A DNA stretch of 64,000 bases from Eubacteriales bacterium (GTDB lineage: Bacteria > Bacillota > Clostridia > Oscillospirales > CAG-272): assembly GCA_045602385.1 (NCBI GenBank), contig JAZSBL010000025.1, forward strand, positions 384 through 64,383, written 5' to 3'. Under the pieces are notes generated by a model that saw only the letters and a list, made by a program, of their open reading frames with translations, ran no database searches and was not told where the DNA came from. Of this stretch, positions 4,281 to 40,600 are shown in pieces. The position numbers and the translations under genes are program-made. Positions within the stretch are counted from its first letter, which is position 1. Each line of letters opens with the position of its first letter.

Positions 4281-4328
4281 GAGAGGGGAGGAGACCTCTT
4301 TTTCCCAAAAAGGGTCTCCTCCCCTCTC
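4281..4328. other. long GC-rich inverted repeat (about 22-bp stem) between ychF and trmB; possible terminator or RNA-stabilising hairpin
   Basis: gagaggggaggagacc (4281-4296) pairs with ggtctcctcccctctc (4313-4328), and the inner cttttt/aaaaag also pairs. No clear U-tract on either strand. Confidence 0.4.
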
Positions 4329-4340
4329 TGCTATCTATCA

Positions 4341-5435
4341 TCAAACGTTAAATCTGAACAGAACGATATCTCCGTCCTTCATGACGTATTCCTTACCCTC
4401 ACTGCGGACAAGGCCCTTATCCTTTGCGGCAACCATATTTCCGCACTCAACAAGGTCGTCAAATGCGATGACCTCTGCACGAATAAATCCGCGCTCGAAG
4501 TCGGAGTGGATCTTACCTGCCGCCTGGGGCGCCTTAGTTCCCTTTGTGATAGTCCAAGCACGAACCTCCTCAGGTCCCGCGGTCAGATAAGAGATAAGAC
4601 CGAGAAGCGAATAGCTCGCCTTGATAAGCTTGTCAAGTCCGCTCTCCGCAATTCCCATATCCTCAAGGAACATCTGCTTTTCCTCGCCCTCAAGCTCCGC
4701 TATCTCGGACTCAATACCGGCGCAAACAGCAATAACGGCACTGTTCTCTGTTGCGGCAAATTCCTTGACCGCCATATATGCGGCATTATCTGTCGGCTCT
4801 GCGGCAACCTCATCCTCGCTTACGTTTGCAACGTAAATAACAGGCTTACGTGTCAAGAGCGGTGTGTCGAAAAGACAAGCCTCCTCGTCTTCTGTAAGAG
4901 TCATTGTACGCGCGCACTTGCCCGACTCAAGAACAGCATAAATACGCTCGAAGAGCTCAAGCTCGCCCGCGAGGGTCTTGTCGCCCTTCATAGCCTTCTT
5001 GGTTCTGTCTATTCTTCTCTCAACCATCTCCATATCCGAGAAGATAAGCTCCATATTGATAGTTTCAAGATCGCGCATGGGGTTGACCGAGCCGTCAACG
5101 TGGATTATATTTTCGTCCTCAAAGCAACGGACCACGTGGATTATCGCATCGCACTCGCGGATATTGGACAAGAACTTGTTTCCAAGTCCCTCACCCTGGG
5201 ATGCGCCCTTTACAAGTCCCGCGATGTCAACGAACTGAATTACCGCAGGGGTGTACTTCTTGGGGTCGTACATCTTGGCAAGCACGTCAAGACGGCTATC
5301 CGGCACAGTAACAACTCCCACGTTGGGTTCTATTGTGCAGAAGGGATAGTTTGCCGACTCCGCTCCCGCATTTGTCAAAGCGTTAAAAAGTGTTGATTTT
5401 CCTACGTTGGGAAGTCCCACGATACCAAGTTTCAT
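4341..5435 (-). CDS. ychF: redox-regulated ATPase YchF
   Basis: MKLGIVGLPNVGKSTLFNALT P-loop, full-length 364 aa, C-terminal ...GKEYVMKDGDIVLFRFNV. Confidence 0.95.
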   Translation of the reverse strand: MKLGIVGLPNVGKSTLFNALTNAGAESANYPFCTIEPNVGVVTVPDSRLDVLAKMYDPKKYTPAVIQFVDIAGLVKGASQGEGLGNKFLSNIRECDAIIHVVRCFEDENIIHVDGSVNPMRDLETINMELIFSDMEMVERRIDRTKKAMKGDKTLAGELELFERIYAVLESGKCARTMTLTEDEEACLFDTPLLTRKPVIYVANVSEDEVAAEPTDNAAYMAVKEFAATENSAVIAVCAGIESEIAELEGEEKQMFLEDMGIAESGLDKLIKASYSLLGLISYLTAGPEEVRAWTITKGTKAPQAAGKIHSDFERGFIRAEVIAFDDLVECGNMVAAKDKGLVRSEGKEYVMKDGDIVLFRFNV

Positions 5436-5540
5436 ATATTTCTCCTTGTGGCTTACTTAAAATGCCCATATTTTCCTATTTTACGTATATTATACAACAT
5501 TTGCAGTAAAAATTCAAGCATTGGGCTGAAATTTGCAGAC

Positions 5541-5578
5541 AAAAAAAGGGCGGCTACGCCCAGAGGTGGACGTAGCCG
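5541..5578 (-). terminator. intrinsic terminator ending the fibre operon
   Basis: On the minus strand, cggctacg (5571-5578) pairs with cgtagccg (5551-5558) and is followed by T7 (plus-strand A-run 5541-5547). It lies 12 nt after the stop of 5590..7068. Confidence 0.75.
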
Positions 5579-5589
5579 TAATTTCTTAT

Positions 5590-7068
5590 TTAATTTGGAT
5601 GTGCATTCCACTTGTATGAGCCATACGAGCTTCCTATTCCTCTTTCGAGTTCAAAGTATCCGTCGGTACATACGACCCTTGAGTCTTCCTTGAGTCCATT
5701 ATGCCACTCATCATGGCTGTTATTAACGATTTCCTGCCATTCTGCCATGGTACCATTAAAGTTGATGGTAACTACCTTGATATCCGAGCCGAAGTTTCGT
5801 GAGAATGTGTTTTTGCCAAGATATTCAAGGGTGTTTGGCAACGATACGGCGGAAAGTGAAGACGTGTACGCAAGCGCGTTGCCCTCTATTCTCTTTACTC
5901 CCTCTCCGACTGTGATGTTCTGAACTCCTGAGCCATAGTCAAAATTATTTTCGTTCTTATAGAGCTTTGCAATGATCTCAACGGGAATTCCGTTGACCGC
6001 TCCGGGTATCTTGGTAGGATTGTTCAACGTATCGACCGCTTCCACGCGGTAATAGTTGATTATTCCGTCTCCGTCGCTGTCTACCGGTATAAGATTGAGA
6101 TTTCCTGTATACGTGTAGATCAGTCTTACGGTAATGTTGCTCGTTGCTCCCTCTATCTTATAATTATCCCACTTTACGCTCATGTCCTGAGCTGCGGCCG
6201 CCTGCGCATATTCAGCAAGCTTTGCATCAACAATTGCCTGACCTTCACTCGACAGATTCTTAGCTGAGCTCTTGAAGCTTTCCTGATACACAACATTACC
6301 GTCGTTATCAACGAACATTATCTGATATATACTATCCCATTTAGCCGAAAGCGTATAGCTGTTGGTGTTTCCTGCCGAGTAGTAGTAGACAGCCTCTGCA
6401 TTGGCATTCAGCCAATATGCAAACGGAAGACCACCGTTATCCGGACCGCTTTCTCTTACGTAATACTCAATGGTATTATCCGTGATGCAATCAACGGCAT
6501 ATTGCTCGTTGCCGTTCATATACGTGATCGTGTAGATAACAGGCTTAAAATCAAAGTTGATAAGCATCTCGCCCGATGAAATGTTTTCGTTCAGCGTGTA
6601 TGTAACGTATAGCGTTATCTCCTCGCCGGGCGCGATCGGCGTGCCACTATAATAGTTCATGCCCTGCGCCGATGGAACAACGTTTGATCCCGCCTCGTCA
6701 AGCGACGCGGTAATAGTCACCTTGTCGGCAGCCCCGCCAAGCGCCGTGTCATACCGTGTTCCTGCATAAACGTACGTGTTGCTCTCGGACTCGTTTTTCG
6801 CGGTGATCCTATAAACGATCTTTTGCCCCGCGTTGCCCGTGACCGTGGTATTTATATTGGTCGGCAACAGTAACTTGTTGGATTGTGTGGCATCGGTGCC
6901 GTCCCATACGGTAACATCCCGAATCACCATGCAATCAAAATCCATAGCTTCAGCATTAACCGAACCGTTAATTAACAAATCCGAGCTTATGCTTGCGTAT
7001 CCTATGCACGCAAATATAGACATAAGGGAGAGCGAGATTCCGATAAGGCACTTTAACCATGTCTTCAT
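5590..7068 (-). CDS. secreted multidomain protein: TasA-like N-terminal module, Listeria-Bacteroides-type repeat and BspA-type LRR (putative fibre-associated adhesin)
   Basis: Signal peptide MKTWLKCLIGISLSLMSIFACIGYASISSDLLINGSVNAEA. Flg_new-like segment YTITYMNGNE...FAYWLNA...YTLSAKWD. LRR_5-like segment IEGNALAYTSSLSAVSLPNTLEYLGKNTF. I prefer ATG 7068 over the track's GTG 7077 because of RBS spacing. Confidence 0.6.
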   Translation of the reverse strand: MKTWLKCLIGISLSLMSIFACIGYASISSDLLINGSVNAEAMDFDCMVIRDVTVWDGTDATQSNKLLLPTNINTTVTGNAGQKIVYRITAKNESESNTYVYAGTRYDTALGGAADKVTITASLDEAGSNVVPSAQGMNYYSGTPIAPGEEITLYVTYTLNENISSGEMLINFDFKPVIYTITYMNGNEQYAVDCITDNTIEYYVRESGPDNGGLPFAYWLNANAEAVYYYSAGNTNSYTLSAKWDSIYQIMFVDNDGNVVYQESFKSSAKNLSSEGQAIVDAKLAEYAQAAAAQDMSVKWDNYKIEGATSNITVRLIYTYTGNLNLIPVDSDGDGIINYYRVEAVDTLNNPTKIPGAVNGIPVEIIAKLYKNENNFDYGSGVQNITVGEGVKRIEGNALAYTSSLSAVSLPNTLEYLGKNTFSRNFGSDIKVVTINFNGTMAEWQEIVNNSHDEWHNGLKEDSRVVCTDGYFELERGIGSSYGSYKWNAHPN

Positions 7069-7095
7069 GTATCTCACTCTCCCCTCGTTTGTAAT

Positions 7096-8796
7096 TTACT
7101 GTTCGTTATTTTCTTCTGTGGGAGTGATCATTGCAGTGAATATCTGTTCAGCCTTGCGTCTGACTACTCCGATGATCTTTTTCAAGGGATGACCGATAGT
7201 CTCGGGATCAACCTTGTAATTTCCTCTTGAGACCTCCGCCTCTCTAACGATCTCCCTGTCGTTGTGGATATCTCTTGTAGGAACAAGGACTACGTCTCCT
7301 GCCTCAACGGAGTTTCCGTCGGGATCGTAACGGTAGGTCTTATCGGGACGCTCCTTCCAGAACACATCGATAGCGTCTACACCGATCTCCTCGGGCTCTT
7401 CAATCTCAGGGATGGCGGCGATAAGCTCCTCGACCTCAGCTTCGGGCTCTACAAGCTCCTCTGTCTTTGCTTCTTCATCGGGTGTCTCGTCCGCCTCGAC
7501 CTCAGACTCCTCTTGCTCTACCGTTGCCTCAACCTCAAGTACCTCGTCCGCCTCAACCTCGGGCTCCTCAAGAACCGTTTCAATAACCGGCTCGGGCTCT
7601 GTGGGCTTTTCGGGTGCAGGGGGTGTGTTTACTACGACCTTAACCACGGGACGTACAACGTTCGTGATATTGGGCTGTACTATCGTTGTGGGAGCGGTAT
7701 CCTTGGGCTCTGCCTCGGGCTCGCTGTATCCTTCAACGCTTACAGTATAAACGTAGAGAAGCTTACTGTCTGTGGGAATTATGAACTTGGTGCAGGTCTT
7801 GTCTGCATTTTCGTTCATAAGTATGGGTGCCTGGATCGTATCACGGATCTCAAGCATCTCGTCAAAGGTATCAACCATAATAATCTGGTATCCACCTGTC
7901 TCGAACATATTGTTGATCTTCTGGATATAGGACTTGTACTGCGAGATTATCTTCTTTACACGTGCTGTGTAAGTGATATCGGGTGTTCTTGTAAGGTAGA
8001 TAAATGCTACAAGAACAAGGATACAAAGCACATCCAGAACACCTATAACGATAGCCGATGTCTTAAATGCCTCGCTTCCCGCTCCTCTTGTGCAGGCGAT
8101 CATCTTCGCCTCCTCGTCCGGAACTGAGGAAGTCATTTTTATGTTGACCGTTTTGGTCGTAAGAGGTATACGAAGCTCGGAAGTGTAGTTATCAACCGCG
8201 CTGCCCGAAAAGGCCTCGCAATCGCTCAACACATCAACCTCAAGGGTCAAGACGATGTTGCTTGTAGTGCTTGTAAGACCATAGGTGTCAAGGAATCTGT
8301 TGGCAAGATCGTTGTACTCGTCGTAATTGATAACCACGATCTCGTTGATCCTTAATCTGTCAGAGCTGCTCTGCGACTTGTTCTGCACGTTGACAAGCTC
8401 GTATTCGGGATTGAATATGGCGCTCTTGGAGCTGTTATCGATTATCTCAAGCTTTGACTTGATGGTATATGAATAACGGTAATTTACGTCCTCGGTATCC
8501 ATATCGATCTCGTATGAAAAGTCCGCTATAATGCGATCGATAAGAGATGCGACGTAAGACTGATTTTCCGCCAAATGATCTTCCTCGTAGAATTCGTTTT
8601 CCTTTAAGAATACGTTATAACTGATATTTCCGCGCTCGGTGTAGCCGATGTAGTATTTACTCTCCAGCTGTACCGAAACGAGAGCCGAGATTATAACCGC
8701 TACCGTCAGAACGACTGCAATCACTATCTGGGTAAATATCCATTTTTCACGGTTTTTTCTGTACAAGGCACGGTGTTTCTTTTCTTTTTCCGACAT
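7096..8796 (-). CDS. DUF5305-like bitopic membrane protein with a Pro/Glu-rich linker and an extra C-terminal domain
   Basis: N-terminal TM (WIFTQIVIAVVLTVAVIISALV), an ectodomain of about 215 aa, and a second TM (AIVIGVLDVLCILVLVAFIYL). Then a cytoplasmic region, an acidic linker (EPEAEPKD...PEKPTEPEP...EEPEVEADE) and a domain of about 90 aa (YRYDPDGNSVEAGDVVLVP). Start set at ATG 8796 behind AAAGGAGG. The DUF5305 assignment is from recollection of this architecture next to SipW genes. Confidence 0.5.
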   Translation of the reverse strand: MSEKEKKHRALYRKNREKWIFTQIVIAVVLTVAVIISALVSVQLESKYYIGYTERGNISYNVFLKENEFYEEDHLAENQSYVASLIDRIIADFSYEIDMDTEDVNYRYSYTIKSKLEIIDNSSKSAIFNPEYELVNVQNKSQSSSDRLRINEIVVINYDEYNDLANRFLDTYGLTSTTSNIVLTLEVDVLSDCEAFSGSAVDNYTSELRIPLTTKTVNIKMTSSVPDEEAKMIACTRGAGSEAFKTSAIVIGVLDVLCILVLVAFIYLTRTPDITYTARVKKIISQYKSYIQKINNMFETGGYQIIMVDTFDEMLEIRDTIQAPILMNENADKTCTKFIIPTDSKLLYVYTVSVEGYSEPEAEPKDTAPTTIVQPNITNVVRPVVKVVVNTPPAPEKPTEPEPVIETVLEEPEVEADEVLEVEATVEQEESEVEADETPDEEAKTEELVEPEAEVEELIAAIPEIEEPEEIGVDAIDVFWKERPDKTYRYDPDGNSVEAGDVVLVPTRDIHNDREIVREAEVSRGNYKVDPETIGHPLKKIIGVVRRKAEQIFTAMITPTEENNEQ

Positions 8797-8823
8797 TTCT
8801 GTAAACCTCCTTTCTCTCAAATT

Positions 8824-9951
8824 TTAATTTGCCGGGTTAACCAGCTCGCGTAGCCACAGGGTTGGGTATCCGACATAGGATATTTTGACGTCGGTAAGTC
8901 CGACGATATCCGATTCGGTCCTGAAGCCTCTGTCCTCGTCCTGATTGAAATCACCCTTGGTATAGTATCTTACCTGACCGTTGATGCGCTCAATCCGAAC
9001 GACTCTGTGAACTATTTTATTTCCACCGTCCTCAAAGACGATGATTTGTCCTTCCTTTATGGGCTGACCCTCATATCTTTCGTAGATGATCGCATCGCCC
9101 TTGTTTATCTCACCCGTCATGCTCTCGGTCGCTATTACTAAAGCTCCGTACCTGAATTGGCAGGAGACTAGCATCGCTATACCCACAAGAGCCGTCACGG
9201 TGATCGCCGTTCCTATCATAGAGAGCTTTTCTCCACTTCTTACGGCATTTTTCTTTTGCTTCTGGTAAAGTGCCGATATAAACGCCATAACCGCTATCGG
9301 CAGGATCAATTTGATACACACTCGAAGTGCATCGGATATTCCCGACTGTGTAGGAAGAAAATAAACATAAAGCGTTGTAATTACCCTGAACGCTATATTG
9401 GGCAGGGGACCGTAGCGCTTTGATACGTAGTGGTAAAGCAGATTACCGCTTATTGCAGGAAATAAGGTCATTCCAACAAGATCCATAAAATCGTTAAAGC
9501 TTGTGATCCCGGCAATACTCGAATATGCAAGCACCTCCGCTGTAACAGAGGAGATAAATGCAATCACGTCTACGATCTTGTTTTTTTGTGCCAAAAGCGC
9601 GTATCTGATTATCTCGACCTCTACGATGATCGCCGCAAGCGGAAGAATTCTCTCGAGTAAGATTCCGAAATTTACGAAATAGGGATTTTGGTAAAAGCCG
9701 AATATCACGCCGGAAAATTGCATCAGTACCGCGTAAACCACCGCAACGGCTGCCATAACCAACAGTACGCCACGCTTGTTAATTGATAGCGCGGCTCTCC
9801 TTTTGATGAGAAATACCGTTAAAAGTGTCATGGGGAGCAGCGCGCACGCCGCGACTATTTTGCTGTTCCCCATGTCAACGAATAATAAGGCGAGGAGGAC
9901 TGCAAATATTATAAAAGAAACGGTATACAGAACCTTTTTATCCTTCGTCAT
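8824..9951 (-). CDS. SipW-like (ER/archaeal-type S26) signal peptidase I fused to an N-terminal polytopic membrane domain
   Basis: C-terminal 115 aa: ATESMTGEINKGDAIIY (catalytic SM), KIVHRVVRI (His box), YYTKGDFNQDED. They are preceded by about 255 aa with roughly 7-8 hydrophobic helices. Confidence 0.75.
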   Translation of the reverse strand: MTKDKKVLYTVSFIIFAVLLALLFVDMGNSKIVAACALLPMTLLTVFLIKRRAALSINKRGVLLVMAAVAVVYAVLMQFSGVIFGFYQNPYFVNFGILLERILPLAAIIVEVEIIRYALLAQKNKIVDVIAFISSVTAEVLAYSSIAGITSFNDFMDLVGMTLFPAISGNLLYHYVSKRYGPLPNIAFRVITTLYVYFLPTQSGISDALRVCIKLILPIAVMAFISALYQKQKKNAVRSGEKLSMIGTAITVTALVGIAMLVSCQFRYGALVIATESMTGEINKGDAIIYERYEGQPIKEGQIIVFEDGGNKIVHRVVRIERINGQVRYYTKGDFNQDEDRGFRTESDIVGLTDVKISYVGYPTLWLRELVNPAN

Positions 9952-10007
9952 CTGCAGCCATCCTTTCTTACCTATACTGTTTGTTTAGCGTTTAAAATCT
10001 CTGCTTA

Positions 10008-10559
10008 TCAGGGGTTGGGAGTTACCGCAACACCTGTTGCCGTGAACTCAACTCTGAAGTTCTGTGTGATTGAAGCGTCCGTTGCAAAGGTCTGGGAGAG
10101 GGTGACCGTTACCGTGAACTGAGCGGTTCCGCCGTTTGCGGGGATTTGGTTGCTTGCATCAAGGCCTGTCCAGGCTCCTGCTACGATAGAAATATTTGCA
10201 TCGTAGTTATCGCCGGTATTTGTGTAGTTGACCGTAGGATTGGTAACTGTTACCGGGAAGTCGTGATCGTTCTTTACCGTGTAAGTAACAACGACCTGGT
10301 CACCCTTGTTTCTGAAGCCGCCGACGTTAAGGTCGATGGACTGGCCGCCGAGAGCCTCCTTGCCATAATTGTTTCCGGATGTGATACCACCCTTTGTCAC
10401 CTGCTCGGATACCGCCGAGAATGTAACTGCGGGAGCGGGAGCTCCAACCGATACGTTACCGCCGATTTCCATGTTTACCGTAAATGCCGCGTAACCGATA
10501 CCGAGCGCGAGTGCTGCAACGAGAAGCAGCGCGATTACTAATGATCTTCTTCTTTTCAT
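10008..10559 (-). CDS. small secreted TasA/camelysin-like protein with a SipW-cognate-type signal (putative major fibre subunit)
   Basis: MKRRRSLVIALLLVAALALGIGYAAFTVNMEIGGNVSVGA resembles the TasA leader/first strand (..GGGTWAAFND...SGTLDLS, recalled). The rest is a beta-rich, Thr/Asn/Val-rich 183-aa protein. RBS AAAGGAG precedes ATG 10559. Confidence 0.55.
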   Translation of the reverse strand: MKRRRSLVIALLLVAALALGIGYAAFTVNMEIGGNVSVGAPAPAVTFSAVSEQVTKGGITSGNNYGKEALGGQSIDLNVGGFRNKGDQVVVTYTVKNDHDFPVTVTNPTVNYTNTGDNYDANISIVAGAWTGLDASNQIPANGGTAQFTVTVTLSQTFATDASITQNFRVEFTATGVAVTPNP

Positions 10560-10655
10560 TGTTTTTTCTCCTTTGGAAAAAATATTTTTTTGTTTTTGAG
10601 GCGTTCCCTAACCGCCTTTTTGCCCAAAACCCACTATTTTGGGCTTTGTAGGCAC

Positions 10656-10688
10656 ATTTTAACATTCCATGACTACAGCTTGACTACA
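10656..10688 (-). promoter_or_regulatory. candidate activator-dependent promoter of the fibre operon: two 11-bp-phased direct repeats plus an extended -10
   Basis: Minus strand reads TGTAGTCA-agc-TGTAGTCA-tggaa-TG-t-TAAAAT. Repeats sit at 10681-10688 and 10670-10677, the TG at 10663-10664 and the -10 at 10656-10661. There is no good -35, and the proximal repeat ends 8 nt from the -10. Confidence 0.45.
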
Positions 10689-10758
10689 AAACTGAAAAAT
10701 TTTTTAAAAAATATTTTTTGGGGCAAGAAATTTGTAAAAAAATCCCCCGCGAGAGCTT

Positions 10759-10988
10759 CAAATTTTGATTTGTCGGGATGTTGTAAATTGAAACAGGGCA
10801 TCCTCATCCACCACTGCGTGGTCCCCCTTCCCCTGCCTTGGGGAAGGCTTTGGTTTAACTGCGGCGAATATATATTTGTAGCCGTGAAAATAATTTTACT
10901 GTCTGTAAATTTTGAATGGCTTCCGCTTTGCGTATGCCTTCCCCAAGGCAGGGGAAGGGGGACCGCGTTCCGCGGTGGATGAGGATGC
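10759..10988. repeat. mosaic REP-like intergenic element containing a 51-bp imperfect inverted repeat
   Basis: Left arm 10799-10849 gcatcctcatccaccactgcgtggtcccccttcccctgccttggggaaggc. Right arm 10936-10988 is its reverse complement except in the central roughly 12 nt. Each arm has an internal ccttcccc/ggggaagg hairpin, and the arms are 86 bp apart. Module 10759-10776 is shared with 21705-21722. Confidence 0.7.
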
Positions 10989-11075
10989 ACGGTTTAATCG
11001 GCGCAAGGCGGATTTCTGTAATAATTTACTGCTGTGAATCCCCCTATAAATCACAATTGATTTATTCGTGTATAT

Positions 11076-11119: not shown

Positions 11120-11923
11120 TTATTTGATTTTGGAAAGCTGATTTTCAAGGTAGCCTACCGTAAACTCAGCCCAGGAGTACGCTCCCATATACTGTCCCGT
11201 AAATGAATTAATAGCGCGGGTATCTCCCTCAAGGAAGCGGTAGTAGTCGCAATCCACTATTTTCGTGTTTACAAGTATTCCCTGCCTGCTCTTCAATATG
11301 AGATCCTTTACGTCAACTCCGTGCAAGGTCTTTACAAGGCTTGCAATATAAACCTGCAAATTCTTCTGCTTGGTTCTGTCGTATTCCTCATCCTCCCAAA
11401 GCATTGCCGCAAGCTCGGGGTAGGTTGCCGACGTTCCTCGCTTGTCCACAAGATAGGCAAGTATCTCCTTGGCCTGCTTGCGCTCGAATTTAAGCGGCGC
11501 GCCGTCCACGAACACGTCAAAGTTGCCAAAGGTGAGTATTTTTATCCTCTTTTCGGGGCTCCACTCTATCGGGTGGCGGAGGTTTTCAAGCTCGTTTTTA
11601 ACCGCCGCGGGCGTAACCGGCTTTAATATGTATCCCGAAAGACGGAGATCTATTCCCTCCTTCATATACTCGGAAAATCCCGTTGCAAATATTATATTTA
11701 TTTTCGGGTTTATCATTTTAAGCTCGCGCGCAAGCTCGATGCCGCTCATTTCGGGCATGTGTATGTCCAAAAAGGCAACGTCCATTTTATTCTCTCGCGC
11801 AACCAAAAGCGCAGACGCAACGTCACGGCACGGAAACACTTTTGCTCCCGTTGCAACCTCTGAAAGCGCGCTTTTCATAAGCTCCAGCGCAAAATATTCG
11901 TCGTCAACAGTTAAAATGTTCAT
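11120..11923 (-). CDS. response regulator, REC plus winged-helix/BTAD (SARP-type, COG3947-like)
   Basis: REC domain: MNILTVDDEYFALELM...DVAFLDIHMPEMSGIELA. Output domain: ILTFGNFDVFVDGAPLKFERKQAKEILAYLV...DCDYYRFLEGD. ATG 11923 overlaps the kinase stop (ATGA). Confidence 0.8.
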   Translation of the reverse strand: MNILTVDDEYFALELMKSALSEVATGAKVFPCRDVASALLVARENKMDVAFLDIHMPEMSGIELARELKMINPKINIIFATGFSEYMKEGIDLRLSGYILKPVTPAAVKNELENLRHPIEWSPEKRIKILTFGNFDVFVDGAPLKFERKQAKEILAYLVDKRGTSATYPELAAMLWEDEEYDRTKQKNLQVYIASLVKTLHGVDVKDLILKSRQGILVNTKIVDCDYYRFLEGDTRAINSFTGQYMGAYSWAEFTVGYLENQLSKIK

Positions 11924-13200
11924 TCCCGTCTCCCTTGCTCGCACGGAATCTCGATCGTAACGCGTGTTCCAACGCCAAACGTGCTCTTGATGCTGAGCTT
12001 GCCCTTACAGATGCGGCGTATTCTGCTACGCACGTTGTCAAGTCCTATGTGTCCCTGCTTATTTGACTCAAACGCCTCGACGTCAAAGCCGACTCCGTCA
12101 TCTATAATTTCCACAATATATTTTTCCTCTTTTATATACGTGGATATTTTAAGCGTTCCGCCCTCCGATCTCTTGGTAATTCCGTGTTTTACCGCGTTTT
12201 CAACTATCGGCTGCACAGAAAGCGGGGGGATAAAGAAATCCTTGCAATCAACAGAGTAAATTATATTAAGCTTTTCCCTGAATCTCGCCTTCTCTATTTT
12301 AAGATAGCATTCAACGTGCTCAAGCTCCTTCTGAAAAGGTATGCGCTGCTCGCTTGAAAGCGCGTCGATATTACTGCGAAGGTAACGCGCAAAGTCGATT
12401 GTCAGATTCTTTGCCTGCTTAGGTGATACGTCACACATTGCCGCAATTGCGGAGAGAGTATTATAGGTGAAGTGGGGGTTTATCTGCGAGAGCATTAACG
12501 CGCTCTTCTGCTCCTCTATAAGCCTCTGCTTTTCCAGATATATGTTTGTATAAAGCACAAGCATGCTTATAACAATACTTACATACGTCAAGGATATGCC
12601 ATGAATCGAATAATCCGCAATAATTCCCGCCAGGGGCAACAGGGCGTATATAATAAATGCTACACGATTGCTTCTTGAAGACGTCTTGGCAAAGATCGCC
12701 AAAAGCACAATAGCCGCAAAGGACGTTATCGAAAACGCGAAATGCAAAAGCACCATCACGGTATTCTCACTATGCACGTAATGCCCATTGGAGCTGACAA
12801 CGAACGAATAGCCAAAGAACGCGTTTCCAATCGCAAAAAGAACCGAGAGCACGCAAAAAACACTAAATACGTTTAGCGTGAATGCAGCGCCCCGACTATT
12901 GGTGTAAAGATTTATACGAAGGTATCTCATAAAGCAGATTGTCGCGATCTGCCCGGCGCAGGATGCTATGGTGTTGGATATAATTGTCGCCATGGCAAGC
13001 TCCGTTTGTCCCTCGCAAATCCAGCTCACCGTATCCGCCATCAGCGCGAGCATTACAAATCCAAGCAATATGATAAAGCTCTTAGTTCCCGATCTTTGCT
13101 TTAACCATTCACCAAAGCATGCCGAAAAAATAATGGCAATGACTATAAATCCAAAAAAATTCAAGGCTATGTTTACGTAAGCTAATTCTATCCTTGGCAT
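11920..13200 (-). CDS. sensor histidine kinase, LytS/YehU-type (His_kinase plus HATPase_c) with a 6-TM sensor
   Basis: LSQINPHFTYNTLSAIAAM (PF06580-type H box), PLSVQPIVENAVKHG (N box), DDGVGF, GIGLDNV. Start set at ATG 13200 behind AAGGGGGAG. Confidence 0.8.
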   Translation of the reverse strand: MPRIELAYVNIALNFFGFIVIAIIFSACFGEWLKQRSGTKSFIILLGFVMLALMADTVSWICEGQTELAMATIISNTIASCAGQIATICFMRYLRINLYTNSRGAAFTLNVFSVFCVLSVLFAIGNAFFGYSFVVSSNGHYVHSENTVMVLLHFAFSITSFAAIVLLAIFAKTSSRSNRVAFIIYALLPLAGIIADYSIHGISLTYVSIVISMLVLYTNIYLEKQRLIEEQKSALMLSQINPHFTYNTLSAIAAMCDVSPKQAKNLTIDFARYLRSNIDALSSEQRIPFQKELEHVECYLKIEKARFREKLNIIYSVDCKDFFIPPLSVQPIVENAVKHGITKRSEGGTLKISTYIKEEKYIVEIIDDGVGFDVEAFESNKQGHIGLDNVRSRIRRICKGKLSIKSTFGVGTRVTIEIPCEQGRRE

Positions 13201-13279
13201 GCCACTCCCCCTTATATTTGCCGTGACCGCCGGACCTCCCGCCAAGCCAGGGCGCATTGCAATGTACCTTCTATATTAC

Positions 13280-33647: not shown

Positions 33648-34815
33648 TTAGAATTTTCTCCAGACCATCTTGTTTACTACGCCGACGTAGGACTGAATGA
33701 TCTTAACTACCTTTGTAGATACGTTCTCCTCGACATAATCGGGGACGGGAATACCGTAGTCGCCGTTTCTATTCATCTCAACGGCTGTTTCAACCGACTG
33801 CAAAAGTCCGACCTCGTCAATGCCCGAAAGAATGAAGCAGGCCTTATCGAGCGCCTCGGGGCGCTCTGTGCTTGTACGGATGCAGATCGCCGGGAAGGGC
33901 TTGCCTATTGAGGTAAAGAAGCTCGATTCCTCGGGGAGCGTTCCGCTGTCCGATACGACCGCAAAGGCATTCATCTGCAAACAGTTGTAGTCGTGGAATC
34001 CGAGAGGCTCGTGCTGAATCACTCTCTTGTCAAGCTTAAATCCGCTTGCGGCAAGACGGTTGCGGCTTCTGGGGTGGCAGGAATAAAGAATGGGCATATC
34101 GTACTTCTCTGCCATCTTATTTATTGCAGTGAAAAGACTGTTGAAGTTCTTTTCGGTGTCGATATTTTCCTCTCTGTGGGCAGACAAAAGAATGTATTTG
34201 CCCTTTTCAAGTCCAAGACGCGCATGAATGTCCGATGCCTCGATCTCGGAAAGGTTGTTTTTGAGAACCTCTGCCATGGGAGAGCCTGTTACGTAAACTC
34301 TCTCCTTGGGGAGTCCGCACTCGTGGAGATACTTGCGAGCATGTTCTGAATATGCGAGGTTGACGTCGGAAATAATATCAACGATGCGGCGGTTGGTCTC
34401 CTCGGGAAGGCACTCGTCCTTACACCTGTTGCCCGCCTCCATGTGAAAGATCGGAATATGCAATCTCTTTGCACCGATCACGGACAAGCAAGAGTTGGTG
34501 TCACCAAGTACAAGCACCGCGTCGGGCTTAAGCTCCGCCATAAGCTTGTACGACTTTGCGATGATATTACCGCAGGTCTCGCCAAGATCCGCACCGACCG
34601 CATCAAGATACGCCTCGGGAGCGTCAAGCTTGAGATCCTTGAAGAACACTCCGTTGAGGTTATAGTCGTAGTTCTGTCCCGTGTGAACGAGAACCGTGTC
34701 AAAGTATGTACGGCACTTGTTTATTACCGCCGCAAGACGAATTATCTCGGGGCGTGTGCCGACGATTATCATAAGCTTTAATTTTCCGTTGTTCTTAAAC
34801 ATCGCATTCGAATTG

Positions 34816-34823
<8 letters not shown>
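33648..34823 (-). CDS. fnlC: UDP-N-acetylglucosamine 2-epimerase, FnlC/CapG type
   Basis: KLMIIVGTRPEIIRLA...VLVLGDTNS...ILLSAHREEN. It is in the same locus as fnlA and fnlB. ATG 34802 (MFKNNG) is an alternative start. Confidence 0.8.
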
Positions 34824-38372: not shown

Positions 38373-39554
38373 TTATACCTCAAAATTAAAGTCGAGTCCG
38401 ACCAGCTTAAGCTCTGCCTTGTAAGATTCTATCTCTGAAGCATTGATGGCGGAAATGCTCTCCCGTTCGCGCCTTATGTGATCTCGTCTGAACAGTAGCA
38501 CGGTCACAAGTCGTCCTGCCCAGGCAAATGGCAGAAGAATTGGGCATTTTCTAAGCCACGGACGATCCTCACACATGGTTTTAAAGCTCGGAAAAACAGC
38601 GCTCCAAAATCTCTTTTTTCTCACCTTATCCGCGTCCGCACCATTTGCAAGCGCGGCGGCCTCATAGCGCGAGCGGTCCTTAGTTGTTCCGTACACACCA
38701 CCGCTAAACACCTTTTGGGTGATAAAGTCCGTTACCTCATCGCCCTCCGCATCCTTGAACCATACGTCAAGAGTTTTCACTATGTTTTTATAAAACTCGG
38801 CTATTCCAAGCTGCTCCAATGTGGCATGTACATACTCGTGGTCTATATCTGCATTCGCCTCAAGCAAAACGTGTATGTCAACAAGGTGCTTTATACCTAT
38901 TCCGGCATATCTGTAATGCTTGGTAAAATGAGATACGAGGTATATAAGCTCGTTTTCCGCGCTCAACGTGTACTCGTGTCCGCCATCTGCCACTTTTTGC
39001 GCGTGATCCCAGCCGTCACCGAAGTATGCATAAAGATCCTTTGTATACGAAGGGATAATTCTCTTGTGCAGCTCTATGCCAAGATCGCCTTTTTTCCAGA
39101 CCCACTCGTGATCACTGGTAAGCAGATGCTTATATCCGAGAGTCTCCATAAGCAGCTCTATTCTGCCCATCTGCTCCTTGCGGATAAGCACGTCCGCATC
39201 GCCAAGAAGTCGCATCTCACTGCACGGATACAGTCGTTTTATTACCGAGCCCTTTAGCCTCATGTAATCCACTCCGTTTTTCTCAAACGCGAGGCAGAGA
39301 GTTTCAAGCTCGCTCTCTTGATTTTGATTCAGCAGAGCCAAAAACATGGCAGAGGCGTATATTTTGCGCTTTTCGTCATGAGATACGAATTCCTGCAGGT
39401 CTCTGCCACCATAATAGATAAGCGGCATTATCTGCTGACTTTTGGCAAATTCGTACAGCCTTGAATAGTCAAAATCCTCCGGGAGAGGAGTATTCTGAGC
39501 CTTCAACGCATTGTTTATGAGGATAATTACTCCTCTCTCAAAGCTTGATAGCAT
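38373..39554 (-). CDS. uncharacterised nucleotidyltransferase family protein (PF14907-like), paralog 2
   Basis: VDYMRLKGSVIKRLYPCSEMRLLGDADVLI, GIELHKRI. Its start overlaps the fnlA stop (TAATG). Confidence 0.65.
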   Translation of the reverse strand: MLSSFERGVIILINNALKAQNTPLPEDFDYSRLYEFAKSQQIMPLIYYGGRDLQEFVSHDEKRKIYASAMFLALLNQNQESELETLCLAFEKNGVDYMRLKGSVIKRLYPCSEMRLLGDADVLIRKEQMGRIELLMETLGYKHLLTSDHEWVWKKGDLGIELHKRIIPSYTKDLYAYFGDGWDHAQKVADGGHEYTLSAENELIYLVSHFTKHYRYAGIGIKHLVDIHVLLEANADIDHEYVHATLEQLGIAEFYKNIVKTLDVWFKDAEGDEVTDFITQKVFSGGVYGTTKDRSRYEAAALANGADADKVRKKRFWSAVFPSFKTMCEDRPWLRKCPILLPFAWAGRLVTVLLFRRDHIRRERESISAINASEIESYKAELKLVGLDFNFEV

Positions 39555-40600
39555 TATTTTGCGTCCTTTGCGATTTCCTGTCTGATATATTCAAGCGAAA
39601 GAAGCTTTTGCTTTACCTCTTCAACGTCAAGAAGCTGGGTATTGTGAGAATTGAACTCAGTAAGAGTATTTCTCTCTGTATCACCCTTGTTGAAGTACTT
39701 ATCGTAGTTGAGTCCGCGCTTGTCGCAGGGCACGCGATAGAACTCGCCCATATCGATGGCGTTTGCGCATTCTTCGTTTGTAAGAAGTGTTTCATACATC
39801 TTCTCTCCGTGACGGATACCGATGACTTTGATGTCCTCCTTGTTACCGCCGAACAGCTCGCAGACGGCCTCCGCCTGTGTTTTGATAGTACAAGCGGGCG
39901 CCTTCTGAACAAGGATATCTCCGCTCTCTCCGTTCGCAAACGCGAACAACACAAGGTCTACCGCCTCGTCAAGCGACATAATAAATCTTGTCATCGTGGG
40001 ATCTGTTACCGTAATGGGGTTGCCTGCTTTGATCTGGTCGATCCAAAGCGGAATTACAGAACCGCGGGAGCACATTACGTTGCCGTATCTCGTGCAGCAG
40101 ATCTTGGTCTGCTCGGGTTTTACCGTTCTCGACTTCGCAACGATGACCTTCTCCATCATCGCCTTGCTCGTTCCCATCGCGTTTACGGGGTACGCCGCCT
40201 TGTCGGTGGAAAGGCATACTACGTTCTTAACTCCCGCATCTATTGCCGCGGTCAGCACGTTCTCTGTACCGATTACGTTGGTCTTTACCGCCTCAATGGG
40301 GAAAAACTCGCATGAGGGCACCTGCTTGAGTGCCGCCGCGTGTAATATGTAGTCAACACCGTGCATCGCGTTGCGTACGCTTGCGATATCGCGCACGTCG
40401 CCGATATAGAACTTGATCTTCTCCGCTACCTCGGGCATCTTAGCCTGAAACTCGTGGCGCATGTCGTCCTGCTTCTTCTCGTCGCGCGAGAAGATTCTGA
40501 TCTCACCGATATCGGTGTCAAGAAAGCGGTTAAGCACCGCGTTACCAAAGGAGCCTGTTCCTCCGGTGATAAGTAATGTTTTGTCTTTGAAAAGTGACAT
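39554..40600 (-). CDS. fnlA: UDP-GlcNAc 4,6-dehydratase/5-epimerase, CapE/FnlA type
   Basis: MSLFKDKTLLITGGTGSFGNAVLNRFLDTDIGEIRIFSRDEKKQDDMRHEF...TDKAAYPVNAMGTSKA. Confidence 0.9.
   Translation of the reverse strand: MSLFKDKTLLITGGTGSFGNAVLNRFLDTDIGEIRIFSRDEKKQDDMRHEFQAKMPEVAEKIKFYIGDVRDIASVRNAMHGVDYILHAAALKQVPSCEFFPIEAVKTNVIGTENVLTAAIDAGVKNVVCLSTDKAAYPVNAMGTSKAMMEKVIVAKSRTVKPEQTKICCTRYGNVMCSRGSVIPLWIDQIKAGNPITVTDPTMTRFIMSLDEAVDLVLFAFANGESGDILVQKAPACTIKTQAEAVCELFGGNKEDIKVIGIRHGEKMYETLLTNEECANAIDMGEFYRVPCDKRGLNYDKYFNKGDTERNTLTEFNSHNTQLLDVEEVKQKLLSLEYIRQEIAKDAK

Follow-up and report, generated by a model that had tools for sequence, protein, structure and literature searches.

Contig JAZSBL010000025.1 of a Eubacteriales bacterium (GCA_045602385.1) harbors, within the 64,000-nucleotide stretch analyzed here (the window), a minus-strand operon in which a small pilin-like protein and a large adhesin-bearing protein are built on the same N-terminal module. 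Four co-directional open reading frames (ORFs) spanning 10559..5590 encode, in order of transcription, the 183-aa pilin-like protein (pilin below), a dedicated signal peptidase, a membrane protein of the DUF5305 family and the 492-aa adhesin-bearing protein (Table 1), which is labeled, with its counterparts in other loci, the tip protein. An ORF check of the window recovered all four with ATG starts, at the positions and with the gaps (56, 27, and 27 nt) given in a preliminary description of this DNA, and each gene is preceded by a Shine-Dalgarno (SD) sequence. The called lengths of the last three genes in relatives are identical to those in the window (375, 566, and 492 aa). The strong terminator and the promoter that had been proposed as operon boundaries also hold, the latter as a conserved element of about 21 species. 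A two-component system lies directly upstream. In a synteny scan with one genome per GTDB species, loci were found in 25 species, all of them uncultured Clostridia, Eubacteriales or Oscillospiraceae represented by metagenome-assembled genomes recovered from the guts of ruminants and other animals. On every contig of sufficient length, the genes run on one strand in the order histidine kinase, response regulator, pilin, peptidase, DUF5305, tip, and the four genes are thus syntenic together with the two-component system.

TABLE 1. Features of the cassette and its flanking signals in order of transcription (positions are those of the window).
Feature	Position	Strand	Remarks
Sensor histidine kinase	11920..13257	minus	First gene of the six-gene cassette; multi-transmembrane N-terminus, then PF06580 His_kinase (1.2e-20) and HATPase_c (1.1e-10) in Pfam
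Response regulator	11120..11944	minus	Response_reg (3.1e-20); Trans_reg_C (8.6e-4, under the Pfam cutoff; OmpR/PhoB-type winged helix, weak)
Promoter/operator	10656..10688	minus	TGTAGTCA direct repeats at 10688..10681 and 10677..10670, 11-bp period; extended -10 TGTTAAAAT at 10664..10656, abutting
Conserved 5' untranslated region, ~95 nt	10560..10655	minus	Hairpin 1 at ~10654..10621; hairpin 2 at 10616..10600; SD AAAGGAGA at 10574..10567
Major subunit, pilin-like, 183 aa	10008..10559	minus	Leader 1-24 MKRRRSLVIALLLVAALALGIGYA (10559..10488); predicted donor strand 25-~44 AFTVNMEIGGNVSVGAPAPA; β-sandwich core 45-176
Signal peptidase I, 375 aa	8824..9951	minus	~9 transmembrane helices (1-~264) fused to a SEC11/SipW-type catalytic domain (~265-375)
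DUF5305 protein, 566 aa from ATG 8796	7096..8796	minus	PF17231 (E 3.7e-10, residues 142-350); upstream TTG at 8820 possible as start
Adhesin-bearing minor subunit, 492 aa from ATG 7068	5590..7068	minus	CIGYA leader, donor-strand-like segment, pilin-like sandwich ~47-176 (7068..6541 including leader)
C-terminal part of the 492-aa protein	6540..5593	minus	β-grasp (Flg_new-like) domains, then BspA-type leucine-rich repeats (AF2 and Foldseek)
Intrinsic terminator, operon end	5578..5541	minus	12-bp stem, 8 GC pairs, 4-nt loop, T-run; 12 nt past the stop codon

The shared-module operon is confirmed. Direct BLASTP comparison aligns the pilin with the 492-aa protein over 93 residues (31% identity, E 0.018), and alignment by hhalign of profiles built from 44 pilin and 32 adhesin homologues gives a probability of 97.4% (E 1.2e-11, 155 columns) that pairs pilin residues 1-169 with adhesin residues 1-173. 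Because this alignment covers practically the full length of the small protein, the shared module is the whole pilin domain. The preliminary description, which had aligned only the end of the signal peptide and the first strand, was correct but too modest, since the module comprises ~175 residues homologous to the entire small protein. The probability for the pilin and the N-terminal domain of the tip is 94.6% without the signal peptides and 77% when the following 20 residues are removed as well. The similarity between the two modules far exceeds what chance would give and holds in orthologues as well. The AF2 models have the same layout: in the pilin (predicted local distance difference test, pLDDT, 89.7) a leader helix is followed by coil from residue 21 to ~44-46 and then by a β-sandwich, and in the 492-aa protein (pLDDT 91.4) the leader helix, ~20 unstructured residues and β-sandwich lead into β-grasp and leucine-rich repeat (LRR)-like C-terminal domains. 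In other species the C-terminal part of the tip either resembles that of the window or has been replaced altogether, while the N-terminal pilin-like module is always kept. The tip of locus L004 (348/363 aa), for example, is of the replaced kind, yet its sequence retains ...CVGYAAITSNMILHG.

The assignment of Flg_new and LRR domains to the 492-aa protein is partly upheld. LRR_5 scores 25.5 bits, just below the Pfam cutoff, and the Foldseek search with the AF2 model returns the BspA-type TpLRR fold (1.3e-3) after the Lactococcus surface lectin YwfG (4e-7). Flg_new was not detected in the window protein itself by domain scan, but homologue annotations, the YwfG match and the β-grasp fold speak for it.

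Both cargo proteins begin with leaders that end in G-Y-A. Pilin leaders are nearly invariant among the 44 homologues (MKKRRTLIISLLLVAALALGIGYA), those of the tips make up another conserved class (MK.W.K...I.LS.MC.F.C.GYA), and in each locus the GYA leader is confined to these two gene classes. The G at -3 and the A at -1 are consistent with a signal peptidase I (SPase I) site. The pattern that follows is common to 245 pilin-size and 77 tip-size proteins: A at +1, a hydrophobic residue at +2 (91-100%), S/T at +3, an acidic residue at +4 (43-48%), L at +6, I/V at +8, G at +10, A/V at +12 and a hydrophobic residue at +14, with +6, +8, and +12 hydrophobic in >90% across the family. The motif GYA...L-x-I-x-G-x-A is therefore kept in the homologues of both sizes, and by this alternation the post-GYA segment is a predicted amphipathic β-strand. 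Since the strict alternation extends at least 14 residues past the site in both cargo classes, it is more than a cleavage signal alone would need. Its register equals that of the donor strand of Pyrodictium abyssi AbpX (W2/E4/L6/L8/A10/I12), as solved by cryo-electron microscopy (cryoEM): in that fibril, W2, L6, L8, A10, and I12 of the mature protein fill the groove of the neighboring subunit and E4 binds calcium (bioRxiv 10.64898/2026.01.04.697558). The AbpX precursor, ...LLALTAIGLTYA↓QWSETLSLSATIS, has the same site and strand register as the window cargos, and the N-terminal ~20 residues of AbpX monomers are likewise unstructured before the sandwich (bioRxiv 10.64898/2026.01.04.697558). A twin arginine that fits Z-R-R-x-Φ-Φ (MKKRR-T-L-I, window 10545-10559) is present in 84% of pilin leaders vs. 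1% of tip leaders. Given the twin-arginine translocation (Tat)-dependent Tafi system of archaea, Tat export of the pilin is possible by analogy, although its leader is short (24-25 residues), very hydrophobic and Sec-like.

The peptidase belongs to the archaeal and endoplasmic reticulum (ER) type. It scores 69.4 bits against TIGR02228 (archaeal/ER-type SPase I, cutoff 51.85) and also matches Peptidase_S26, residues ~255-367 align with human SEC11C (E 1.5e-11) and SEC11A (E 5.9e-10), and the catalytic motifs around Ser (ATESM), His (VHRV) and Asp (KGDFNQDED in the window, KGDxN...D in general) do not vary among 25 distinct orthologues. Against the SipW equivalog NF046067, in contrast, it reaches 43.2 bits, far under the cutoff of 190. 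The earlier label "SipW-type" thus holds for the class of the enzyme but not for orthology with SipW. Hydropathy places ~9 hydrophobic segments ahead of the catalytic domain. This region has no Pfam family and contains conserved polar and aromatic motifs (NPYF, E-x-I-R, FMDLVG-TLFP, N-x-x-YHY, and G-x-x-PNI-FR; 9232-9951, residues 1-~240), a degree of conservation that points to a role other than mere anchoring. From its E-x-x-R and N-x-x-Y-H-Y motifs the region might be taken for CPBP-protease-like, a reading that was discarded as it has no support from hidden Markov models.

The DUF5305 protein is the third structural gene in every locus long enough to show it. The PF17231 match and two transmembrane (TM) segments bear out its description as a DUF5305-like membrane protein: TM1 (24-42) and TM2 (248-266) flank an extracytoplasmic part (~43-247), and a cytoplasmic acidic linker rich in P and E leads to a small C-terminal domain. 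In the tail (7096-7800, residues ~330-566), the long Pro/Glu-rich linker is followed by a basic C-terminal domain of ~80 aa (YRYDPDG...GDVVLVP...), and the tail has no family match. In the Tafi fimbriae of Haloarcula and Natrinema, the DUF5305 protein TafG is encoded beside the dedicated peptidase TafD, in a set that also has major and minor pilins (TafA/E among them) and a two-domain protein acting as tip or initiator (TafC), and donor-strand exchange is supported by models or cryoEM; deletion of TafD in Haloarcula abolishes pilin processing and fimbriae, and unprocessed pilin accumulates (PMC11821415, PMC12337348). By analogy, the window protein is presumed to be a TafG-like accessory of the peptidase.

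The nature of the leader also bears on a quite different arrangement, in which it would be an uncleaved signal-anchor that tethers both proteins, possibly docked to the 9-TM domain, with the peptidase acting elsewhere or as a release switch. A hydrophobic core as invariant as this one (LLLVAALALGIGYA) is uncommon in Sec signals, the TM domain of the peptidase is large and has conserved polar residues able to bind a TM helix, and a model for Clostridium perfringens includes membrane-anchored intermediates before SipW cleavage (PMC11580942). However, with G at -3 and A at -1 the site obeys the SPase I rule, in the alignment it falls on the processing site of AbpX (TYA↓QW), and the unprocessed pilin that accumulates without TafD comes from a homologous system, which makes a permanent anchor highly improbable.

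The pilin has no family in Pfam or NCBIfam, and a sequence-profile search of the PDB returned insignificant Ig/Fn3 matches only (best, C5a peptidase, E 0.018). Foldseek places the Sulfolobus acidocaldarius thread subunit Saci_0406 first (7pnb, E 2.6e-3, TM-score 0.34), followed by CfaB, TasA, Fim, Caf1, and Pap; the TasA fiber (8aur_A) stands at rank 8 with a weak match (E 1.8e-2, TM-score 0.34/0.28). Although weak, the structural matches of the model are strikingly of one kind, being dominated by donor-strand pilins. An exhaustive search with the pilin-family profile retrieved 7689 clusters at E<=1e-3, of which 151 reach E<=1e-30. Almost all of the best matches are proteins of 162-197 aa aligned end to end, with a few giant DUF7507/DUF11 repeat adhesins, which indicates that the pilin core belongs to the CARDB/DUF11-like class of Ig domains. 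Nearly invariant positions of the core in the 44 homologues are N97 (the sole polar one), V45, and F47/F168, and no conserved Asn/Glu/Lys isopeptide triad is apparent. The mature protein has an isoelectric point (pI) of 4.35 with just 7.5% Asp+Glu.

The cleavage context of TasA, ...G-T-W-A↓A-F-N-D, is reminiscent of ...G-I-G-Y-A↓A-F-T-V in the window. As family membership, the proposed likeness to TasA and camelysin did not survive: the window pilin has no match to Peptidase_M73 at E<=0.1, and AbpX itself has a sub-threshold M73 match only. To judge by profiles and gene context, the nearest characterized relatives are archaeal AbpX and the "AbpX-like" loci, and Tafi shares the DUF5305 partner. 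The pilin and AbpX families align by hhalign at 95.7% (E 1e-8, 153 columns), the AbpX profile being a shallow one of five close archaeal sequences. In archaea and Bacillota, abpX-like loci commonly encode a 10-TM SPase I, DUF5305, AbpX-like minor subunits, tip proteins and histidine kinases (bioRxiv 10.64898/2026.01.04.697558). The window has in common with them a neighboring histidine kinase, DUF5305, an SPase I with many TM helices and a pilin module in the minor or tip subunit, as well as a subunit of ~160-180 aa, a leader ending in ...G-x-(x)-Y-A and a donor strand that is hydrophobic or aromatic at +2, acidic at +4 and hydrophobic at +6, +8, and +12. In contrast to these loci, the window operon is minimal (four genes, without extra minor pilins), its peptidase has ~9 rather than 10 TM helices, its tip carries Flg_new-like and LRR domains, and its hosts are uncultured Clostridia of animal guts. 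The window pilin is also too distant from AbpX for BLAST, and is less acidic than AbpX-like subunits (pI ~4, ~15% D+E), which makes an AbpX-style, calcium-triggered assembly doubtful.

Other systems share parts of this arrangement. Tafi and the Sec-type DUF1102 clusters of Thermococcales and Archaeoglobales combine a dedicated SPase I beside DUF5305 with a major pilin and a two-domain tip or initiator, and in them the enzymatic genes are conserved but the structural ones vary. Unlike the window peptidase, whose catalytic domain follows 9 TM helices at the C-terminus, TafD has 4 TM helices, with its catalytic domain at the N-terminus and an Ig-like domain at the other end. Tafi pilins use Tat, whereas the window leaders are short, very hydrophobic and Sec-like, with the arginine pair in the pilin leader and not in the tip leader, and the window locus lacks an equivalent of TafB or TafF. 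The TasA-SipW-TapA system of Bacillus subtilis and the SipW-BsaA-BsaB-BsaC system of C. perfringens have an ER-type peptidase, a fiber subunit with an N-terminal donor strand and a second cargo for the same peptidase (the nucleator TapA or the vWA protein BsaC), but SipW has no 9-TM domain and those operons no DUF5305. Among structures, the pilin model is matched best by the S. acidocaldarius thread, a TasA-superfamily filament whose donor strand is N-terminal, but the match is weak and thread loci have no TafD/TafG-type genes. The locus should be filed under the wider TasA superfamily near AbpX-like and Tafi-like loci, and not with TasA/camelysin proper. Readings as a sortase pilus, a chaperone-usher pilus or a type IV pilus were rejected: neither cargo has an LPXTG motif or a type IV pilus-type leader (G↓F-x-x-x-E), and the conserved cassette has no sortase, chaperone or usher genes.

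The locus probably encodes a chaperone-free, donor-strand-complemented extracellular fiber of the TasA superfamily, closest to AbpX-like and Tafi-like systems. The two-component system would activate the single promoter via the TGTAGTCA direct repeats, and the 183-aa and 492-aa subunits would be exported with their nearly invariant, class-specific leaders ending in G-Y-A. The SEC11/SipW-type peptidase with its ~9 extra TM helices would then cleave after GYA, assisted by the DUF5305 protein, and thereby expose the amphipathic strand A-Φ-S/T-(D)-x-L-x-I/V-x-G-x-A/V. The freed strand would enter the incomplete β-sandwich of the next subunit, giving rise to head-to-tail linkage. Because it has the same strand and sandwich, the 492-aa subunit would be built into the same fiber, which it could nucleate, cap or intersperse, displaying its β-grasp and LRR domains to a host, food-particle or microbial ligand. 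On the model of TapA and TafC, it probably forms the tip or nucleates the fiber. The fiber model as originally proposed, with a dedicated ER/SipW-type peptidase, a major subunit and an adhesin subunit with a common leader and first strand, is thus partly supported: it retains the backing of motif conservation, of synteny and, weakly, of the fold matches to donor-strand pilins, and loses that of TasA/camelysin membership. The gene context adds support, since in archaea it has been tied to fibers by genetics and cryoEM.

Several observations weigh against a fiber of this kind. The fold matches of the pilin are weak (best E 2.6e-3, TM-score ~0.3), and its core resembles common CARDB/DUF11/DUF7507 Ig-like domains, which also occur as non-polymerizing repeats of giant adhesins. 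The mature pilin has 7.5% D+E vs. ~15% in AbpX-like proteins, and the window pilin carries Val instead of an acid at +4 (+2 is F). The alignment with AbpX drops to 79% (E 1.5e-5) without the signal peptide and to 68% for the core alone, for which reason confidence in AbpX homology is moderate, and the N-terminal domain of the tip alone has no hhalign match to AbpX. PF12389 Peptidase_M73 is not among the best 25 of the 62 Pfam families matched by the 44 family members (E<=1). Finally, the locus encodes neither an LPXTG nor an SLH anchor to cell wall or membrane, so that the model does not account for the attachment of the fiber. The weak fold matches, the generic Ig-like core and the lack of an anchor, chaperone or usher gene at the locus would equally suit a peptidase and DUF5305 protein that mature two non-polymerizing surface or secreted proteins, whose N-terminus is no more than an export and cleavage signal. 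Such a system without any fiber is unlikely: it would not account for the amphipathic alternation over at least 14 residues past the site, needless for cleavage, in both cargo classes, nor for the match in register to the solved donor strand of AbpX, and archaeal loci of the same context are tied to fibers.

Compared with locus L001, protein identity in the window is high for DUF5305 (98%), the response regulator (94%) and the tip (91%) and lower for the kinase (61%), the peptidase (57%) and the pilin (31%). Compared with L007, the pilin (83%) and the peptidase (76%) are the similar ones, and the tip is alignable at 30% only, over 224 N-terminal residues. At the DNA level, similarity to L017 covers the promoter and the 70 nt that code for the leader (93%); it is lost in the pilin body and where the peptidase gene begins, returns in the rest of the peptidase gene and DUF5305 (84%), is lost again just past the tip leader and is back (88%) in the downstream ychF-like gene. 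Over window 5447-10777, comparison with these three loci shows a mosaic in which the promoter, the leader-coding segments, the catalytic domain of the peptidase and DUF5305 are 84-98% identical. As similarity breaks just after the leader-coding segments, the pilin body, along with the 5' part of the peptidase gene, and the tip body are exchanged as cassettes. Swapping of exposed parts with retention of the machinery is typical of surface filaments under diversifying selection. Two loci contain additional tip genes: L023 has two tip-type genes in tandem (4293-7256), and L007 carries one more ORF, tip-like but truncated, that begins with a GYA leader (6120-7959). Such extra genes may be a reservoir of adhesin cassettes.

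An alternative is a second kind of fiber, a biofilm-matrix scaffold of the TasA/BsaA/AbpX type, in which bundling or gel-forming fibers are released and the 492-aa protein is a TapA-like nucleator or cross-linker instead of a tip adhesin. The closest characterized relatives (AbpX, TasA, and C. perfringens BsaA) are matrix fibers, no anchor is encoded, the cassette is under two-component control as in biofilm loci, and a large, unannotated polysaccharide-type gene cluster lies in the same window. A matrix scaffold is nevertheless only a tentative possibility, given that LRR and β-grasp domains of adhesin type, in a C-terminal part that is swapped between species, suggest ligand-specific adhesion and that the scarcity of acidic residues speaks against calcium gelation as in AbpX.

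The kinase gene lies directly upstream of the response regulator and pilin genes in every locus long enough to show it, and the response regulator, whose adjacency is constant, is 69-94% identical between loci; its true start is likely the ATG at 11923, giving 267 aa as in relatives. It is presumed to activate the pilin promoter. There is no -35 element, and the TGTAGTCA repeats stand where one would be. In 21 aligned species loci, the second repeat is invariant (21/21), both repeats are present in 20/21, and the -10 bases T30, A31, A33, and T35 are likewise invariant. The promoter element is the most conserved non-coding part of the locus. Because of the OmpR-like domain and the 11-bp period of the direct repeats, these are probably the binding site of the adjacent response regulator.

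The 5' untranslated region (UTR) contains a second conserved signal. The loop of hairpin 2, UAGGGA (10610..10605), is invariant and lies 42-51 nt before the ATG, ahead of the strong AAAGGAGA SD. In 22/24 distinct motif-bearing loci, differing, compensatory stems (GAGCG/CGCUC, GGGUG/CACCC, GAGCCU/AGGCUC, and others) hold the same loop, as seen in per-sequence folds, which were used since gaps in the MAFFT alignment split the arms of both hairpins and hid them from RNAalifold. Comparison of the 5' UTR with Rfam gave nothing above noise. The hairpin may stabilize the mRNA or control translation, in a CsrA-like or another manner. A CsrA-type arrangement of two GGA motifs occurs in the Bacillus subtilis hag leader; for the pilin 5' UTR such an arrangement can be offered as a hypothesis only. 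No CsrA homologue was found in the 64-kb window, a result that says nothing on the rest of the genome.

Between the terminator of the response regulator gene and the pilin promoter lies a palindromic element of ~205 bp (10791-10995), with arms at 10817-10891 and 10893-10967 and outer arms at 10791-10812 and 10974-10995. It looks like an insertion of the type of miniature inverted-repeat transposable elements, and is apparently absent from L017 and L001, because DNA similarity to both starts only at window 10777, just downstream. Elsewhere in the window, a long co-directional run of minus-strand ORFs at ~32400-58200 has, by eye, N-terminal motifs of the sort found in sugar-nucleotide and polysaccharide biosynthesis enzymes, among them an epimerase-like (MIIVGTRPEIIRL, 33648-34823) and a dehydratase-like (LITGGTGSFG, 39554-40600) one, and is probably a capsule or exopolysaccharide cluster.

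The combination of a 9-TM domain with DUF5305 invites a more far-reaching, and rather doubtful, proposal: the two could form a membrane assembly platform, a functional "usher" for monoderms, that recognizes the leader helix and couples GYA cleavage to strand insertion. In the same proposal, the conserved leader-coding DNA would provide the homology arm by which strains swap cassettes of pilin and adhesin, and the UAGGGA hairpin would exert translational control. As for novelty, a two-cargo system with an LRR adhesin in Clostridia had been thought undescribed. Multi-cargo sipW operons are already known, as in the sipW-bsaA-bsaB-bsaC operon of C. perfringens (PMC11580942), and so are abpX loci of Bacillota with tip proteins (bioRxiv 10.64898/2026.01.04.697558), so that this view is partly overtaken. 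The locus is read here as a new member, a distinct and abundant subfamily of gut Clostridia with a pilin-LRR fusion subunit, within the recently recognized donor-strand fibers of the TasA superfamily, and not as a new kind of machine.

The surface fibers of gut Oscillospiraceae-like Clostridia are almost unstudied, and the cassette is widespread in animal-gut metagenomes. If the fiber reading is true, the cassette would offer a compact model, with four structural genes and one promoter, for chaperone-free donor-strand assembly in bacteria, and a regulatory circuit open to testing, consisting of the two-component system, the TGTAGTCA repeats and the UAGGGA hairpin. The archaeal AbpX/Tafi machinery, a multi-TM SPase I together with DUF5305, would then also serve mesophilic gut bacteria, and exchangeable LRR or other adhesin modules would act as determinants of niche or host binding.

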